Sequence record: ON528735
Source of the DNA: Shigella phage ESh25
DNA: 64,000 nucleotides
Strand: one strand, 5' to 3'
How positions within the stretch are numbered: the first letter of the stretch is position 1; each line of letters opens with the position of its first letter. The notes below the pieces were generated by a model. It was not told the origin of the DNA and made no database searches. It was given only the letters and a program-made list of their open reading frames with translations. A program made the translations under genes and the position numbers. This document shows, piece after piece, positions 19,980 through 62,401 of the stretch.

Positions 19980-20243
19980 TTAAATTAGTACTATTTGCCG
20001 GGTGAAAATTGTCAATCCATCTGCATTAATTGACTTAACGACTGCAGTAAAATGTTTTTGTTCTGGGTGAACTAGTTTTTGAAATTCTACTTGAAATTTT
20101 AGTTGGAGGTTTTCTGGTAAATCAAAAAGTGTTTCTGTCGCAGAAAGATTATATTTTTCTTTAAGAGACGCCATGTATTCTTGCGGAGTTATAGCAGTCA
20201 TATTAATTACCAATCGTATATTTAGGAACGAGTTTCCATTCAT
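19980..20243 (-). CDS. hypothetical protein between regA and 43
   Basis: 87 aa track ORF; alternative ATG at ~20201 overlapping regA stop gives 73 aa. Confidence 0.35.
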   Translation of the reverse strand: MNGNSFLNIRLVINMTAITPQEYMASLKEKYNLSATETLFDLPENLQLKFQVEFQKLVHPEQKHFTAVVKSINADGLTIFTRQIVLI

Positions 20244-20572: not shown

Positions 20573-21136
20573 TTACCATTCCAATGCTAGTTTTTTGAGT
20601 TGTTTCTGTTCTTTTACGTTCTTAGTCACTTCTTTCAAAAAATCATCCGTGACTAATCCTTTAAGTTCTTTTAATACTAAAGGTAGTTTTCCATTTTTAG
20701 TAAGAATTGATTTATAGTTAATTGCATCATTTGTATTAACTTGATAACGCTTAGCAAGTAACTTAATAATCAATACTTCGGTAGAATCTTCTACCAGTTT
20801 TGCCCATTTACCATATCTTTTACCACGAGGAACTGCAGCCATTAGATAATTAAAATGAGCTTCATCACTTAAACCTGATCCAATTAAATTCATAGCATAT
20901 ACAGCTGGCATGCATTCAGGAAATTGTGATAATGCATTCTCAACCATGTATTTTGAATAATCTTTTTGAGCAATAGAGCATTTAGTTTTATTATTAATAG
21001 CTCCAATTATTTCAAAAAACTCATTTTCAGCTTTTTCTTTAAAAGAATCAGCAGCAGATTGGACAGCTGTCCAATCTTTTGAATACCAAGCAACTTGATG
21101 CTCGTTTAATTGAATATCATCTTCAAATAAGCTCAT
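20573..21136 (-). CDS. 62: clamp loader small subunit (gp62)
   Basis: 187 aa; T4 synteny. Confidence 0.9.
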
Positions 21137-21137
21137 A

Positions 21138-22097
21138 TCACTTCCACTGCATTTCGCATGCTAATTGAATGAAAAGATATGCTAAATGTAATTCCGTATT
21201 AGCCGCAATTCCATGATACTGGTTATTTTCACCAACAATTTCATACATACGAATAATACTTTGCGGAGTTACGCGTGTATAGATTTCTTCGGCAAGTTTA
21301 CCAACGAACCACGAATAATCAGCCGCATATTTTGGTGCTAAAGCTCTGAGTTGTTTAACATCTTTATTTTTGAGAGACTCAAGAACATCATCAATAGCAC
21401 CACGATCGTTAGTAACCAGTGATAAAATACCAGCATCCAAAACACCTTTAGACGAATAACTATCGAGCTCGCCAATAGTTTTACGAAAATCAGGAAAATT
21501 CTTTTTAACCAAAGCTGCTACAACTTTCATATCAGCTATAGCAATTCCTTCATGCTTACAGATTTCAGTCAATCGACGAATCATCTGCTTCATCATTTCA
21601 ATTTTATCTTCATCGGTCGGTTGACCGAACGTAATAACTCGGCAGCGTGACTGAAGTGGTTTAATAATACCATCAATATTATTAGCAGTAATAATAATAC
21701 TACAGTTTGAACTATAAGCTTCCATAAAGGAACGAAGATGTCGCTGAGACTCTGCTAATCCTGAGCGGTCAAATTCATCAATAACGATTACTTTTTGACG
21801 ACCATCAAATGAAGCGGCGCTGGCAAAATTAGTCAAAGGACCACGAACGAAATCAATTTTACAATCTGATCCATTCACAAACATCATATCAGCATTTACA
21901 TCATGACACAGTGCTTTTGCTACAGTTGTTTTACCTGTTCCTGGAGAAGGAGAATGAAGAATAATATGTGGAATCTTACCTTTACTTGTAATAGATTTAA
22001 AGGTTTCTTTATCAAAGGCGGGAAGAATACATTCATCGATAGTAGATGGACGATATTTCTGTTCAAGAATGTGTTCTTTTTCATTTACGGTAATCAT
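21138..22097 (-). CDS. 44: clamp loader ATPase (gp44)
   Basis: Track ORF trimmed to MITVNEKEH giving 319 aa; Walker A GTGKTT. Confidence 0.93.
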
Positions 22098-22131
22098 AAT
22101 TTCCTCATTCAAGTTTTAGTGTAAATTATAA

Positions 22132-22145
22132 AGGGCCGAAGCCCT
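22132..22145 (-). terminator. intrinsic terminator hairpin
   Basis: agggccgaagccct downstream of gene 45. Confidence 0.5.
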
Positions 22146-22148
22146 CTA

Positions 22149-22835
22149 TTAAAAATCGTGGGTAGAATCAGCTTCAAGAGCTACTACATAATTCGCATGT
22201 TCACCTTCAAATTTAGCAGCACCTTGTTTACCTTTTGCCCAGAGCAGAAGTTTATAATTTCCTGGTTGCATTTTCATATTTGCCATATTGATAATGAAAT
22301 TAAATGTATTTTCACCATCATAATCACCAAGAGTCAAAGAATATTTAACACGAGTCAAAGCAGAATCTTCTACTTTATTAAAACCGTTAATTATGATTTT
22401 ACCTTCTTTTACCGTGATAGCAATTGTATCAATTTGCAGACCACGAGATACACGCAGCAGTTGTTGAAGGTCTTCAGCTTTAATTTCAGTAACAACAGAT
22501 GCTACCGGAAATGGAATTGGTTTATTAGGAGCAACTACTGTACTCGGATCGGCTGCTGGCCAAAAAATTGTTGAGCGGGCATCAGCAATTTTAATATTTC
22601 CATCTTCTGACTGGGAAATTTCTGCATCATCATTAACTAAAGACAGAATACCGAGAAAACCGTTCAAATCGTAAATTGCTACATCAAAATCAATAACGTC
22701 AGAAATATTTGCTTCCGCATAAGTTGTACCATTAACTGCGCGAGTCATAATAAATTGACCTGATTTAAGCATAATGCCAGAGTTAATAGTAGCGAAATTT
22801 TTCAAAATATTCAGTGTGTCTTTAGATAATTTCAT
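22149..22835 (-). CDS. 45: sliding clamp (gp45)
   Basis: 228 aa; sequence recognised as T4 gp45. Confidence 0.95.
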   Translation of the reverse strand: MKLSKDTLNILKNFATINSGIMLKSGQFIMTRAVNGTTYAEANISDVIDFDVAIYDLNGFLGILSLVNDDAEISQSEDGNIKIADARSTIFWPAADPSTVVAPNKPIPFPVASVVTEIKAEDLQQLLRVSRGLQIDTIAITVKEGKIIINGFNKVEDSALTRVKYSLTLGDYDGENTFNFIINMANMKMQPGNYKLLLWAKGKQGAAKFEGEHANYVVALEADSTHDF

Positions 22836-23719
22836 TTCAATTTCCTATTTACATAATAGTTAGACCAGGACCGTACAGCACCCTGATAAGATTCGTCGTT
22901 AAACCCATTAGCTACTGCAATTTTACGAAATTTATTATAACTTGGTTTTCCGTAAGCATGCCATAAAGATTTTAATTCATCTTCATGTTCAATCCAAGTT
23001 CCTCTAGCTTTAGATTTTCTAAATTTTGATTTGAATTCCGGTAAATTATTTCTAACAGTTGCTTGAATTGAAGCTCTCTGTCTTCTTTCAGCATTATTCC
23101 ATAATTCTTTTTGAGATTTAGAAATTTTTGATCTTACACTTTCTGAATTCATTATATCACTAAACTTTTTAGCATAACTACAATCAAGATATTTCAATTT
23201 CATCTTATTTGAGAGTTTAAGCTTTTTCTCATCGGTCCAGTGATTCTTCATTGAATTAGATATTTTGTATTTTACTTCAGAACTATGTTTGTAACCTTTA
23301 CGAATACCGACATACTCAGGCGTAATTTCAGATTGCGAAAGCTTTACAATTTTTCCAGTTAAAACATTTTTATATGTTCCATATCCTTTAGCACCAATTA
23401 AAGTATTTTCATCTGCGTATGCTTTATTAAAATATTTTATATTACTTTTTGCTTTAACTTTTAATTGAAAAAATCTCTCCAATTTTCTTGGATCTAATAT
23501 AGTTTCAGCTAAAATTTTGACGGTATATTTAGTGGTTTTAATAAGTTCAAAATATTCATCGCTATAACTCGATGACACGCTTCCAGTATAAATCTTTCCA
23601 GCTGAATCAATTATATTTGTTCCATCGAAAATTGCGTTAATTTTTGAACCTATATAATAACACGGAAAAATATTTTTAGCTTCCCGCTCTGGAAAGCTAA
23701 TAAGATATACTAAATTCAT
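22832..23719 (-). CDS. GIY-YIG homing endonuclease (Seg-like)
   Basis: 295 aa; N-terminal VYLISFPE...CYYIGSK motif; C-terminal repeated basic Ser/Lys motifs (NUMOD-like); inserted between 45 and rpbA. Confidence 0.7.
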
Positions 23720-24105
23720 TTATTAAACTCGGCCACAATTGTTTCCGCAACAATTTGAGCAGCAACAATTAGACGTTCATCTGCATTACCACAATAATCA
23801 TCTTCAAGGCGTTCACCACATGAAGTCATAATAAATTTAGCACCGGCGTTTAGGGATTCTGTAGTATGTTTGCGCATTAGTTCAATCCATTTATTACTTA
23901 CTTCACGATCGATAGCTTCATAATACGCATGACGAGCAGGTGCAGATTTAATTTTGTTCTGAATAACTTCCATTGCGTTATCAGAAAGAGACAAAACCCA
24001 TGCTCGACGAATTTTATTTTGGTTTTGTGGATTTGATTCAGAACGCACGTGTTTTGGCTGAATATCTTTTACATCAACAGTATAATTCACAGTAATTTTA
24101 GTCAT
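23716..24105 (-). CDS. rpbA: RNA polymerase binding protein RpbA (probable)
   Basis: 129 aa; T4 synteny and size. Confidence 0.65.
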
Positions 24106-24114
24106 AATACACCT

Positions 24115-24303
24115 TTAGTCATAATAATCAGTAACAGTCCAAGCTTCATTTCTATTGGACATTATTTTTGTATATTCTGCTTTAAATGCATTCCTAAGCA
24201 TAGATTCAGTAACTATATGCTCTTCATTAGAAAAATTATTTCTCAGAATATATCGTTTTATTTCAGGAAAAGTTAATAGATGCTGTCCAGTTGAATATTC
24301 CAT
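24115..24303 (-). CDS. hypothetical protein (45.2 position)
   Basis: 62 aa ORF. Confidence 0.45.
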   Translation of the reverse strand: MEYSTGQHLLTFPEIKRYILRNNFSNEEHIVTESMLRNAFKAEYTKIMSNRNEAWTVTDYYD

Positions 24304-24358
24304 GTTTTTCCTCCATAGAGATTATACTCTAATAAATTAAAGCATAATCTCTTATAAA

Positions 24359-26041
24359 TTAAACCATTACAGTAAATCGACCAACTTTCTTCATTTGAAG
24401 ATGCTGACCATATTCTTGCGGGTCATGGTCTTTATGCGAAATTATAAAAACATTAGTGTTTTTCATTGAATTTATAATATTAGCTACACCTTTAATGCCT
24501 TCGGCGTCAAATGACCCATCAAACACTTCATCGAGTATTAATGTACTAATACTAACACCAGATACAATAGAAGCAATATCACGCCAAGTAAATAAAAGAG
24601 CAATATCAATTCTTGCCTTTTCACCTTCACTAAATGAAGCATAACTAAAATCTTCACGACCACGAGATTTAATTGTCTCATTAAATTCTTCATCTAATGT
24701 AAACACATAATCCGCTTCCATTATTTTAAGATAATGGTTAATCTGCTTATTAAATAATGGAATGTACTTTTTAATAATAGCACCTTTAATACCAGAATCT
24801 TTGAGCATATCAGTCAAAATTCCTCGGTGGTATTTTTCCATTACTAAATTAGTTTTTGTCTTAACAATTTTATCAAGTTCTTCTTGAAGCAGTGCTATTT
24901 CATCAGCATGGTCAATAAACTCAGAAGATGCTTTTTCTATAGCTGCTTTAACTTTTTTAGCTTTATCTACTGTCGTGATTAGAGATTGCTTTTTATTGCG
25001 AATATCATTTGCCAACGACTGCTGGGTTTTAATATTATCTCGGTATTCATCAACAAGAACTTTTAAATTATCACGATGTGTTGAAAGCTGTTCAAACGAA
25101 TGCGTACATTCAGAAACTTTATCTTTAATTTTAGAAACAACTTTATCACCTGAACTTAATTGTGACAAGCAGGTTGGACATAATCCACCTTCGTGATACA
25201 TATTAATGACTTTATTATACGAGTCAATTTTTGATTTAATTAAAACTGCTTCTTGACCGATTTTATTAAATGCATCAGTCGGGTCTTCATCTAAAACAAT
25301 ATTAACTAATCTTTCGTTAGCTTCTTCTATTTCCGATTTTAACGTTCTAGCTTCTTTTGCCAAATCATCATACATATTTTGCAGACGAGTAAGGTTGTCA
25401 CCCGTTAATTTTTTCTGGCGTTCAACGTTATCATTATATATTTTAATTTGTTGGATAATACTATCTTTTTTAACATCAAGCACTTGGTTCTGCGAATTTA
25501 ATTCACGTATTAGTGCTTTATTAAGCTTATCCATTTCAGCTAATGTTCCTACCTCAAGCAGGTCTTCCACAAGCTTTCTTCGCGCAGGGGTCGACAAACC
25601 CATGAAAGGGGTATACCCTGCTGTACCAAGGACAACAATCTGCTTGAAACTGGCATATGACATTCCGATAAGCTGTTCAAATTCTGCTTGGAAATCTTTA
25701 CTGCTGGCAGATTCATTAAGACGTGTACCGTTAACGGTGATTTCGAAAACGTTCGGTTTTTGTCCTCTTTTGATATAGTACTTTTTCTCATCATATTCCA
25801 TCCACAGTTCAACTAAAAGTTCTTTCTTATTTGTGCTGTTTATTAATTGACCTTTCTTTACATCACGAAATGGCTTACCAAAAAGCCCAAATGTGATGGC
25901 TTCTAACATAGTAGACTTACCACCGCCATTTCGTCCAGTAATAAGAGTTTTTTGAACCTTATCTAATTGAATGTCAATCCCATTTTGACCAACTGACATT
26001 ATATTTTTATATTTTACTCTATTAAGTTTAAAATTCTTCAC
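24359..26041 (-). CDS. 46: recombination nuclease subunit gp46 (Rad50/SbcC-like)
   Basis: 560 aa; Walker A GRNGGGKST, coiled coil, CxxC hook. Confidence 0.95.
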   Translation of the reverse strand: MKNFKLNRVKYKNIMSVGQNGIDIQLDKVQKTLITGRNGGGKSTMLEAITFGLFGKPFRDVKKGQLINSTNKKELLVELWMEYDEKKYYIKRGQKPNVFEITVNGTRLNESASSKDFQAEFEQLIGMSYASFKQIVVLGTAGYTPFMGLSTPARRKLVEDLLEVGTLAEMDKLNKALIRELNSQNQVLDVKKDSIIQQIKIYNDNVERQKKLTGDNLTRLQNMYDDLAKEARTLKSEIEEANERLVNIVLDEDPTDAFNKIGQEAVLIKSKIDSYNKVINMYHEGGLCPTCLSQLSSGDKVVSKIKDKVSECTHSFEQLSTHRDNLKVLVDEYRDNIKTQQSLANDIRNKKQSLITTVDKAKKVKAAIEKASSEFIDHADEIALLQEELDKIVKTKTNLVMEKYHRGILTDMLKDSGIKGAIIKKYIPLFNKQINHYLKIMEADYVFTLDEEFNETIKSRGREDFSYASFSEGEKARIDIALLFTWRDIASIVSGVSISTLILDEVFDGSFDAEGIKGVANIINSMKNTNVFIISHKDHDPQEYGQHLQMKKVGRFTVMV

Positions 26042-26301
26042 AAAAGATTCCTTTTAATGTATCTTTTAGACCATTCTATCATATCATCATAATCTAAAAA
26101 GTATTCATCAAATTCAGCCATGCAAACAACACCTTGTGCTGTTTTTGATGTAATATAAATTATTCCAACATATCTAGAATCTTCTTCGGTATAATCAATG
26201 TTTGCTATGAATTCATCATTAATGTCAAATGTCGAAAACTTCACAGTATGCATCCTTAATACAAGATACAGCCATATCTTGTAATGATTTAGGTGTGTCA
26301 T
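26038..26301 (-). CDS. hypothetical protein
   Basis: 87 aa ORF. Confidence 0.5.
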   Translation of the reverse strand: MTHLNHYKIWLYLVLRMHTVKFSTFDINDEFIANIDYTEEDSRYVGIIYITSKTAQGVVCMAEFDEYFLDYDDMIEWSKRYIKRNLL

Positions 26302-31658: not shown

Positions 31659-31991
31659 TCAGCTGTAACGATAGCACTCGTTTGATTTACGCTTAGCAAC
31701 TAGTTGAGAAGTATTATAATCAAAATCATCGTCAATGTAAACTGATTTTTTCAACTTTCTTACTTCACCACGTAATTGGCGATTTAGCTCATCTTTAACT
31801 TCTGAATCAATACCTTTCATTCTACGCCATTTATCTGAGCGAAAAATGTTTTCAACCATATCTTTATGACTTACACCGTCTGGAGCTTTACGCTTTCCAA
31901 AATAGTCATAATCACGCACTTTTAAGTCTTTACGACGATACGTTTTACCCATGGAGTTTAATTTCCTTAGCAACTGAACTAAATGCAGCAC
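31659..31991 (-). CDS. hypothetical basic protein
   Basis: 110 aa ORF. Confidence 0.45.
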   Translation of the reverse strand: MLHLVQLLRKLNSMGKTYRRKDLKVRDYDYFGKRKAPDGVSHKDMVENIFRSDKWRRMKGIDSEVKDELNRQLRGEVRKLKKSVYIDDDFDYNTSQLVAKRKSNECYRYS

Positions 31992-32285
31992 GATCGCAAA
32001 TCATGCGTTTATGTAACTTGAGTATAATATAGCAAACTTCAAAACTATTTACATGAGTAACACGAACAGCATTACCATTAATGAGATAATACTGTCCCTT
32101 TTTAATTTCTTTATCAACCACAACCATATCAAATCCTCAAAGGCAATTCATATGTTAATAATACCACGGTTTGAACTTGTTGTAAACAACTTTGTGAAAA
32201 ATATTTTAGGGAATGACAAGAAGGGAACGATAGCTTAGAATGGTAATATACAGAATGCGAGAAAGAAAGGCCCAGAGGGCCCGTC

Positions 32286-32609
32286 TTAATCTTCTATGAT
32301 ATCTCTATCATATCCAAGTGAAATGAGAGTTTCTTTGAAGTGTTTAATGTTCTTTTGTCTAGAATCATTAATGAAAATGACAGGATACCGAATATTAAGA
32401 GATGTGAATCCGGCGCGTTTGGCAAGAGATACAATCAGTGGACGATCATACTCAATCTTACCATTATTAGTAAGAACTTTATAAAAAGTAAAAGGAGCAT
32501 TGAGCTCCTTTAGAAGTTTTGTAACTGATTGACATCCAGGACAACGACCTACTTCATCTGGAATTCCATAGACTTCAATCTTATTCTTTAAGTTCGAGTT
32601 TTGTTCCAC
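32286..32609 (-). CDS. nrdH: NrdH-like glutaredoxin/thioredoxin-fold protein
   Basis: CPGC redox motif; lies 5' of nrdG/nrdD as nrdH does in T4; 150 aa track ORF starts at GTG with implausible N-terminus, so start placed at an internal GTG; start uncertain. Confidence 0.45.
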   Translation of the reverse strand: MEQNSNLKNKIEVYGIPDEVGRCPGCQSVTKLLKELNAPFTFYKVLTNNGKIEYDRPLIVSLAKRAGFTSLNIRYPVIFINDSRQKNIKHFKETLISLGYDRDIIED

Positions 32610-32892
32610 GAGAAATAATTCCTTGGTAAGCCCAATAAGGAGGATTAACAGAATCCTCACCAGAGTTTTCTTCAGGAAAATAAACCTGGATAACGAAGCC
32701 GGATTCATCAAAGGTAAAATAAACCGTAGGCAGTTCACCTAACAAATCGGCACGAGCGTTGATTTCTTCGAGGTCTTGTTCACGTCCAGTCCAGAAGCTT
32801 GGGTTCAGACTACATTCATAGAAATAATAGTCATTACCGAACATATCAAAACCATTCCAACTCTCTACTACATACCGCTCAAAACTAATCAT
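32581..32892 (-). CDS. hypothetical acidic protein
   Basis: 103 aa ORF. Confidence 0.45.
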   Translation of the reverse strand: MISFERYVVESWNGFDMFGNDYYFYECSLNPSFWTGREQDLEEINARADLLGELPTVYFTFDESGFVIQVYFPEENSGEDSVNPPYWAYQGIISRGTKLELKE

Positions 32893-33226
32893 AATTAATC
32901 CTTTTTATCAAGAACCGCATTCAGCTTGTTAGTAATTTTATCCAGACGCTCATTGAACTCACTAGAAGATAAGCCCTTTTCTGGAGAAATTAAACTAATC
33001 ACGAAAAATATAGCAATAAAAGGAATAAGGAAAATAGCTCTCCAACTGCCATAAACAGAAAGAATGTTACAGTTGTAAGAAAATCAGCTAAACCTTTACG
33101 AAATTTATACATATTTACCCTTAATTAATTAACCAAGCATTGATAAGCACTAAACTATATTGCGAATAAAATTCTGGACCAAAATGAAAAATCATATCAT
33201 TTATAGTATCCATAATGTAATTCAAT

Positions 33227-61743: not shown

Positions 61744-61751
61744 TATTTATA
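61744..61751 (-). promoter_or_regulatory. possible late promoter TATAAATA at segB 3' end
   Basis: Exact 8-mer on minus strand overlapping last segB codons, a few nt 5' of tRNA-Ser; could be chance in AT-rich DNA. Confidence 0.3.
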
Positions 61752-62355
61752 TATTGTTAATTTGATTTAGAATTCTTTTTGCTTGAGTATGACTTACGCC
61801 AATATGCTTAGCATATTTAGATAATTCACCCCGCTTAGAAAAATCATATAATTTAGAAATTTCTATTCTTCTTTTTCTTTCATCCGCAGAAACTTTTGCT
61901 TCGTTTGCTTTTGCTATTTTACGTTTAGCTTCTTGAGAATGAGTTTTACCAGCAAAGCCATTTTTCATTAATCCATTTGAAGACCATCCTTTTAATTTTC
62001 CGTTAGAATGTGCCTTTTTAACACCCAATGAAATTAATTCGCGTTGCTGATCTGTCATAGGATAATTATTTATATGATCCCATCCACCTTCACCTCCAAG
62101 TTTTAAATTATACACATCTGGTCTATTTAAAAACTCTTCTGTGACAATATTTTTCTCGGCTTCAAGCATAGATTCTTTATCATCAAAATACTCTAATATT
62201 TCTTTAGAAAAATTTTCTATGCCATATTTATCTTGGGCTCTTTTTAATAATTTACCAGAACCCATATATCCATCATCTAAATTTTCGGTAGAATGCACAC
62301 CAATATAAATTTTATTATTAATTTTATTTGTTATTTTATAAAGATAAAAATGCAT
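61747..62355 (-). CDS. segB: GIY-YIG homing endonuclease SegB
   Basis: FYLYKITNK...IYIGV motif; embedded in the tRNA cluster as in T4; track ORF starts at ATG 62397 (216 aa), I prefer ATG 62355 next to the motif. Confidence 0.8.
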   Translation of the reverse strand: MHFYLYKITNKINNKIYIGVHSTENLDDGYMGSGKLLKRAQDKYGIENFSKEILEYFDDKESMLEAEKNIVTEEFLNRPDVYNLKLGGEGGWDHINNYPMTDQQRELISLGVKKAHSNGKLKGWSSNGLMKNGFAGKTHSQEAKRKIAKANEAKVSADERKRRIEISKLYDFSKRGELSKYAKHIGVSHTQAKRILNQINNI

Positions 62356-62401
62356 ATCAGTCCCTAATAAAGAACTGAGCGTCTCACGACGAGTCATAAA
62401 T

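Follow-up and report, generated by a model that had tools for sequence, protein, structure and literature searches.

What kind of gene lies between the sliding clamp gene 45 and rpbA in Shigella phage ESh25, and how did it come to be there? The question is raised by an open reading frame (ORF) of 295 amino acids in the window, that is, the whole stretch of 64,000 nucleotides (nt) of sequence record ON528735 that was analyzed. The ORF is very probably a free-standing gene for a homing endonuclease of the GIY-YIG superfamily, SegG branch, and its homing mechanism would be that of its family. The similarity of its N-terminal domain to T4 SegG, its sporadic presence at one precise point in T-even genomes, and a recoded gene 45 next to it all point in this direction. 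The ORF, its neighbors and the two junctions are the following (positions are those of the window unless another record is named).

22832..23719, minus strand: the predicted endonuclease ORF, a free-standing seg-like gene of 295 amino acids with ATG start and TGA stop.
22149..22835, minus strand: gene 45, encoding the sliding clamp, the downstream neighbor (Pfam gp45-slide_C, 2.4e-51; DNA_PPF, 7e-33).
23716..24105, minus strand: rpbA, the upstream neighbor (Pfam PF10789, 6e-42).
23716..23721, minus strand: the upstream junction, where the last rpbA codon and stop are changed from CGT TAA in T4 to AAA TGA, with ATGA at 23716-23719.
22832..22849, minus strand: the downstream junction, where the end codons N-R-K-L-K-stop hold the ribosome-binding site (RBS) of gene 45, AGGAAA (22841-22846), and ATGA.

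The sequence ATGA is shared by the rpbA stop and the endonuclease start, an overlap of 4 nt (23716-23719), and again by the endonuclease stop and the gene 45 start, also an overlap of 4 nt (22832-22835). The preliminary description, which reported a 295-amino-acid ORF with 4-nt overlaps between gene 45 and rpbA, is accurate in every detail, including the coordinates and the ATGA at both ends. By its account T4 would have no endonuclease at this position, and none is there: gene 45 occupies 31917-32603 and rpbA 32659-33048 of the T4 genome (NC_000866), and the 55-nt spacer between them holds no ORF. The endonuclease ORF is placed between two complete genes, outside any intron or intein, and the gene is considered free-standing, without a group I intron, because a scan of 21000-25500 returned no Rfam family at E ≤ 1. 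The G+C content of the gene is 29%, as against 34.4% for the window. The gp45 of the window is 97.8% identical in amino acid sequence to that of T4; farther out are gp45.2 and gp46 upstream and gp44, gp62 and RegA downstream of the locus.

The family assignment rests on the N-terminal part of the protein.

23405..23719, minus strand: the predicted SegG-type GIY-YIG catalytic domain (residues 1-105), with the family-invariant residues Y5, Y22, G24, Y44, S47 and N98.

Over residues 1-102 the protein shares 40% identity with the N-terminal domain of T4 SegG (BLASTP pairwise E 1e-16), a tblastn search of T4 with the protein finds SegG at E 3e-9, and in PHROGs the protein belongs to phrog_655, 'homing endonuclease' (4e-33). 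A word-indexed homolog search gave 5 proteins and an exhaustive HMMER scan was needed; run against 1.84 billion cluster representatives, it yielded 265 relatives, of which 126 were aligned. The N-terminal hidden Markov model (HMM) of these 126 members detects SegG at 2.8e-36, the query at 1.3e-30 and I-TevII at 6e-4. Invariant among the aligned relatives are the six residues listed above, and the query retains every one of them; V4, P19, I23, S25, K26, E81 and F97 are conserved in at least 90%. When the family profile was compared by hhalign with an alignment of SegA, SegB, SegC, SegF, I-TevI and I-TevII, the match covered the entire domain (probability 93.6%, E 2e-7). VY was paired with GIY, YIG with YIG or YYG, and Y-x-G-S with the 'Y-M-G-S-G' of the Seg proteins, and the Glu and Asn found counterparts. 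In this alignment E81 and N98 line up with the Glu and Asn of SegA and I-TevI. The metal-binding Glu of I-TevI is E75 and its structural Asn is N90.

The motif pair itself is present as V4-Y5 on the strand 2-8 and Y22-I23-G24 on the strand 21-26, which bears out the GIY-YIG-type motif read earlier at the N-terminus. The alpha/beta fold of the GIY-YIG superfamily (beta-beta-alpha-beta-alpha) was also found. A first AlphaFold2 (AF2) model, built on a 6-sequence alignment, had a predicted local distance difference test (pLDDT) score of 68 and gave meaningless Foldseek matches, and was discarded. Searches of PDB sequences with phmmer and with a shallow profile returned nothing.

A profile search for the GIY-YIG domain had been proposed as a check. 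Taken literally it is negative: the protein has no match to Pfam PF01541 at E ≤ 1 and none in NCBIfam, and its sub-threshold Pfam matches are DUF7132 (0.0097) and NUMOD3 (0.11). It is positive by SegG similarity, the family HMM and hhalign. None of the 126 relatives matches PF01541, and 7 match PF19835 (SegE_GIY-YIG). In a control, SegA, SegB and I-TevI matched Pfam, whereas T4 SegG and SegF gave no match at all. The missing PF01541 match is uninformative, because SegG and SegF, which likewise fail, are listed as active GIY-YIG enzymes in the Edgell 2010 review (PMC2988022). That the ORF is a SegG-family GIY-YIG homing endonuclease gene is regarded as highly likely. For annotation, the Pfam GIY-YIG model overlooks the entire SegG branch.

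Another member of the family was met elsewhere. In the metagenomic T4-like contigs L036 and L037 (1532-3995), a RecA_N-type ORF and an ORF that matches the UvsX C-terminus are separated by a SegG-family relative of 322 amino acids (P0005), and uvsX appears to be split by this gene. The downstream uvsX fragment has a weak intein-splicing Pfam match.

The C-terminal half of the ESh25 protein carries two further elements.

23012..23299, minus strand: NUMOD3-like basic helical repeats (residues 141-236), a presumed extended DNA-binding linker (NUMOD3, 1i3j and AF2).
22847..23002, minus strand: C-terminal helical module (residues 240-291), similar to the C-termini of SegA and SegF (BLASTP and helices 240-289).

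The basic Ser/Lys repeats noticed earlier in this half proved to be NUMOD3-like. The match of the query itself is weak (Pfam, residues 142-158, E 0.11), and NUMOD3 is matched by 88 of the 126 family members. The family profile aligns with the I-TevI DNA-binding domain 1i3j, in its NUMOD3 segment, at 1.6e-4. In the AF2 model six successive helices (residues 147-235) are followed by a small helical module (helices 240-289). Compared by BLASTP with a 7-sequence set of T4 Seg proteins, and computed without composition correction, residues 136-295 match SegA (4e-8) and SegF (3e-4). The terminal module is presumed to be a DNA-binding domain of helix-turn-helix type. The protein is built of modules, as are I-TevI and the T4 Seg proteins: a SegG-type nuclease domain comes first, NUMOD3 repeats follow, and the tail is SegA-like.

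How the gene came to this position can be judged from its distribution. A megablast search with the 2.4-kb region matched 625 phage records, of which 24 cover all of it and about 600 the flanks only. The gene is thus present in 24 of 625 Tequatrovirus-type records, with 97.6-100% amino acid identity among the 24. Mosigvirus-type flanks were found in 10 records with the gene and about 144 without it (about 10/154). Apart from the gene, the flanks of these carriers and non-carriers are 98-99% identical. The rpbA and gene 45 matches are spaced by 883 nt in 9/9 carriers and by 58 nt in 10/10 non-carriers sampled. The comparison of the 45-rpbA junction across T-even genomes, which had been suggested as a test, therefore shows a sporadic insertion at an identical point. 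The same junction holds alleles of 54-60% identity, with the same ATGA to gene 45, in the Mosigvirus AV114, the Gaprivervirus VR26 and the metagenomic T4-like contig L033. Of the earlier proposal of a lineage-specific Seg-like insertion, the kind of element stands; 'lineage-specific' was too narrow for a gene that is sporadic in Tequatrovirus and found in at least three other T-even lineages. A scan of IMG/VR with gp45 gave 14 loci, none with the endonuclease, which serve only as empty-site controls.

All 295 codons are intact in the nine carrier genomes sampled. Polymorphic codons over these nine number 26 with synonymous changes only and 12 with an amino acid change, which suggests purifying selection on the intact copies. 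Together with the 265 relatives from the HMMER scan, these results show that the ORF is no product of chance. Decayed copies are also known, in Mosigvirus.

L039 801-1695 (AV115) and L042 1002-1890 (AV111): decayed endonuclease copies with frameshifts or premature stops, for which sequencing error is possible.

These frameshifted copies stay in place and retain the recoded gene 45 5' end described below. By their annotation, the copies of JM17 and FL18 also seem to be frameshifted. Sporadic presence, a precise site and decaying copies together form the signature expected of a homing endonuclease gene, and it is well known that the content of Seg genes differs between close relatives of T4 (PMC2993671; PMC2988022). 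In one of the carriers, Escherichia phage N2 (ON645936), an HNH endonuclease is annotated as well, between 45.2 and gene 46 (L029 3859-4575, plus strand); its strand is the opposite one, and it overlaps the start annotated for gene 46.

The same distribution might be read differently: the ORF could have resided at rpbA/45 in the common ancestor of the T-even phages and have been lost many times, without any homing. The filling of one junction in four lineages would fit such a history, as would a divergence of the endonuclease (54-60%) comparable to that of the flanking genes. The empty genomes, however, have a well-formed spacer with a promoter-like element and not deletion scars, and the boundaries are sharp and identical. 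Presence in 4-6% of near-identical relatives, the lower G+C content of the gene and its homology to the Seg-type homing endonuclease family also speak against long residence, and we regard this history as highly improbable.

If the gene is a homing endonuclease gene, a target site should be altered in the genomes that carry it. The following feature is the candidate.

22803..22835, minus strand: recoded gene 45 5' end, the predicted immunity allele, with carrier-linked differences to +33.

The comparison of nine Tequatrovirus carriers with ten non-carriers extended 600 nt upstream and 1300 nt downstream. Fixed carrier differences occur only in the last 6 nt of rpbA (-6, -5, -4 and -2) and at +7, +9 and +18 of gene 45; the latter are all synonymous (CTG to TTA, GAT to GAC). 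At +21..+33 an allele encoding TLNIL instead of TTALL is found in 9/9 carriers and 4/10 non-carriers, and beyond +33 there is no association with carriers among these genomes. Three fixed differences in 18 nt, as against 0 in 1280 nt, give a Fisher p of 2e-6. Of the records in the full collection, about 426 show the junction of T4 type and 24 carry the endonuclease; TLNIL is found without the gene in about 51.

For Mosigvirus and Gaprivervirus, the comparators chosen at first (L014-L017) had about 70% nucleotide identity, too little to be informative, and close relatives took their place. Close relatives with an empty site were used for the carriers of Tequatrovirus and Mosigvirus; none were obtained for VR26 and L033. 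Within gene 45, Mosigvirus AV114 and its close relatives without the endonuclease are distinguished by 16 differences over the initial 57 nt, as against 6 over the remaining 630 nt (Fisher p 3e-14). The carriers in Mosigvirus and Gaprivervirus and L033 have AGY CGT where others have TCT AAA, a switch of Ser codon family together with a change of Lys to Arg. Phages of several lineages that lack the endonuclease have ATGAAACTGTCTAAAGATACT in common. The window does not contain the unrecoded 21-mer, with up to 3 mismatches allowed. From these patterns, the endonuclease would recognize or cut the gene 45 5' end (ATGAAACTGTCTAAAGATACT...) in genomes that lack it, and carriers would be immunized by the recoding of gene 45 plus the insertion itself.

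It might instead be supposed that the nuclease has its target far away or in an unrelated genome, such as that of a competitor phage or the host, and that the recoding of gene 45 is a hitch-hiking polymorphism. The title of Liu et al. 2003 speaks of a 'distant cleavage site' for SegG, and the TLNIL allele occurs without the endonuclease. Yet no carrier-specific differences are found beyond -13..+33 in the compared 600 nt upstream and 1300 nt downstream, and a protected distant site is hence not visible in this range. Moreover, the recoding was replicated independently in Mosigvirus. A distant target is considered distinctly unlikely. An active ESh25 copy with its target at the gene 45 5' end is judged somewhat more likely than not, with less confidence than the family assignment.

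The insertion may also bear on the expression of gene 45. In T4 the rpbA-45 spacer holds a MotA-box middle-promoter-like sequence, ATTGCTTTA-N-TAAAAT, that overlaps the rpbA stop, and one endonuclease-less record annotates a promoter at the T4-type spacer element. This element is absent from the window. The comparison of the junctions indicates that the endonuclease cassette replaced the spacer of about 55 nt with its promoter-like element. Within and near the gene the following signals were noted.

22934..22962, minus strand: candidate middle promoter of gene 45 inside the endonuclease ORF (-126 relative to the gene 45 ATG), GGCATGCTTACGGAAAACCAAGTTATAAT; consensus only.
23151..23177, minus strand: another candidate promoter inside the ORF (-342 relative to the same ATG), TTATGCTAAAAAGTTTAGTGATATAAT, with an extended -10; consensus only.
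24319..24346, minus strand: MotA-type middle promoter-like site before 45.2, TATGCTTTAATTTATTAGAGTATAATCT, identical in the window and T4.
23676..23700, minus strand: 10-bp hairpin in endonuclease codons 7-15, a possible attenuator; fold z-scores of -1.0 to -1.6, weak.

At -126 the MotA box is perfect in AV114, VR26 and L033 (TGCTTTA + 12 nt + TATATT) and degenerate in the window (TGCTTAC + 12 nt + TATAAT). At -342 it is perfect in AV114 (TGCTTTA + 11 nt + TATAAT) and in VR26, the window has TGCTAAA with an extended -10, and L033 has no such site. Both assignments inside the ORF are candidates resting on matches to the consensus. Identity at third codon positions over the four alleles is 0.19 overall, 0.4-0.5 at the promoter-like sites and 0.6 over the last codons, and AATAGGAAA...AAATGA, the Shine-Dalgarno region of gene 45, is retained in all four of these diverged alleles. 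In this respect the gene resembles segG, which harbors embedded promoters for gene 32 (PMC2988022).

Neither a promoter nor a Shine-Dalgarno sequence is obvious for the endonuclease gene itself, and the lack of a clear Shine-Dalgarno before it points to translational coupling to rpbA. The site before 45.2 probably drives a 45.2-rpbA-endonuclease-45 transcript. The T4 late promoter TATAAATA is absent from the endonuclease ORF. A scan for generic sigma-70 promoters found 12 sites, as against 12.2 in shuffled sequence, and from this lack of excess no conclusion is drawn. Hairpins formed by unlike sequences are located 20-60 nt into the ORF in the window, VR26 (L004 ~2531-2560) and L033 (~2524-2548), but not in AV114. 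They weakly recall the 5' terminators inside segF and mobE (PMC2988022), and the hairpin of codons 7-15 is treated as a lead only, because its fold z-scores are unimpressive.

These captured signals might suggest a domesticated or 'addictive' remnant, which no longer homes and is kept for the RBS and promoters of gene 45, the protein being perhaps inactive or merely DNA-binding. On this reading the endonuclease gene would carry these signals, and its deletion would harm the expression of an essential gene. The loss of the T4-type promoter-like spacer, the promoter-like sites inside the ORF and the gene 45 Shine-Dalgarno encoded by the end codons of the endonuclease agree with this, as do frameshifted copies that persist in place rather than being deleted and a family with no conserved Arg; embedded promoters are said to favor retention (PMC2988022). 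Against it, the family-invariant residues are all kept, with E81 and N98 among those retained, non-synonymous change is under-represented in the nine intact copies, and SegG, listed as active (PMC2988022), has the same set of residues. Sporadic presence on varied flank haplotypes and a gene 45 5' end recoded in two genera are, in addition, what ongoing pressure from a nuclease would be expected to produce. That the gene is no more than such a remnant is judged unlikely.

For the homing endonuclease gene proposed here, the following course of events is envisaged. Lacking a promoter, the gene would travel as a passenger on the 45.2-rpbA-45 transcript, with ATGA coupling its translation to that of rpbA; the end codons of the endonuclease would provide the RBS of gene 45, and the candidate promoters inside the ORF would replace the one lost with the spacer. 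When a carrier and an endonuclease-less relative infect the same cell, the enzyme would cut both DNA strands of the relative at the 5' end of gene 45 or close to it. Recombination-dependent repair of the T4 type, with the carrier as template, would then transfer the endonuclease gene along with a short stretch of flanking DNA, a process known as intronless homing or marker exclusion. The carrier would be protected, as its own site would be destroyed both by the insertion and by the changes, mostly synonymous, in codons 3-11 of gene 45.

Several points weigh against this proposal. Cleavage, the cut site and homing by this endonuclease are all things that we infer. In the 126-sequence family alignment no Arg equivalent to R27 of I-TevI is conserved; its role may be taken by K26, which is near-invariant, or by the Y-x-G-S motif. 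SegA, SegB and SegC are also without an Arg after YIG in the alignment and share the Y-x-G-S motif, yet reach the Pfam threshold, and both failure to reach that threshold and lack of the conserved Arg occur among characterized T4 Seg enzymes. The TLNIL allele is present in about 10% of endonuclease-less genomes and is, by itself, not carrier-specific. Across genera, amino acid identity is 54-60% for the endonuclease, 59-79% for gp45 and 45-49% for RpbA; there is no sign of recent cross-genus transfer, because the endonuclease has diverged about as deeply as the flanking genes. A broader picture may be drawn, in which the rpbA/45 element is an old, site-faithful Seg lineage that, across four T-even lineages or more, has kept to a single target, the first ~30 nt of the essential gene 45, and driven repeated changes in the N-terminal gp45 codons, synonymous or conservative (TCT AAA to AGY CGT). 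It would have captured the gene 45 RBS and promoters so that dead copies cannot be lost, and the nuclease would have selected TLNIL as a resistance allele. Taken jointly, these claims are tentative, and we would rather doubt than expect that all of them hold.

Among characterized enzymes T4 SegG is the closest in the catalytic domain (40% identity over 102 residues, the same invariant residues, the same HMMER family). Both genes are free-standing and upstream of an essential replication gene, with promoters inside segG and possible ones inside the rpbA/45 ORF (PMC2988022). SegG differs in its location at gene 32/59, its length (210 amino acids as against 295) and its target, gene 32, where that predicted here is gene 45. 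Its C-terminal half has no detectable similarity to the NUMOD3-like repeats and SegA-like tail of the rpbA/45 protein. That half aligns with SegA (NUMOD3 unit and W..IW..GK....K.A...GF..SY tail) and more weakly with SegF, and the order of GIY-YIG, NUMOD3 and helical tail is the same in SegA and SegF. Unlike in these two, the catalytic domain is SegG-type, with a long insertion between YIG and Y-x-G-S; SegA reaches the Pfam GIY-YIG threshold, whereas the rpbA/45 protein does not. I-TevI, the structural archetype, is encoded in an intron (the td intron), whereas the rpbA/45 gene is free-standing; the rpbA/45 protein, about 21% identical to I-TevI, has no zinc finger or NUMOD1 match and no conserved equivalent of R27.

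The T4 table of the Edgell 2010 review has no Seg or Mob gene at rpbA/45 (PMC2988022), and full-text literature searches found no paper on an endonuclease at this site. In GenBank the ORF is labeled '(putative) homing endonuclease' in several records and 'hypothetical protein' in many. The gene would be an uncharacterized addition to the well-known Seg kind; new here are the fidelity to one site in several lineages, the captured gene 45 signals and the target prediction. Homing endonucleases of the Seg type influence the survival of markers in co-infections of T4-like phages and add to the mosaic structure of the genome near essential genes. A natural series of alleles, some sensitive, some recoded and some decayed, exists in two genera and would offer a compact system for the study of target immunity, co-conversion tracts and the retention of selfish genes through captured signals.

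Three other ORFs of the window, all on the minus strand, were noted. An ORF of 216 amino acids at 61747..62397 is SegB-like (phrog_314, 1.5e-55). Its residues 15-108 are nearly identical to T4 SegB 1-94 and its C-terminal half is unrelated to T4 SegB, which looks like a Seg endonuclease with a swapped DNA-binding half. An ORF of 87 amino acids at 19980..20243, between regA and gene 43, belongs to phrog_3826 (function unknown); T4 has a gap of 78 nt there, and in phage PaulHMueller the counterpart is annotated as a hypothetical protein. The homolog of 46.1 at 26038..26301 is called with 87 amino acids, as against 68 in T4, and its listed start is probably too far upstream, because the PHROG match spans only residues 20-87.

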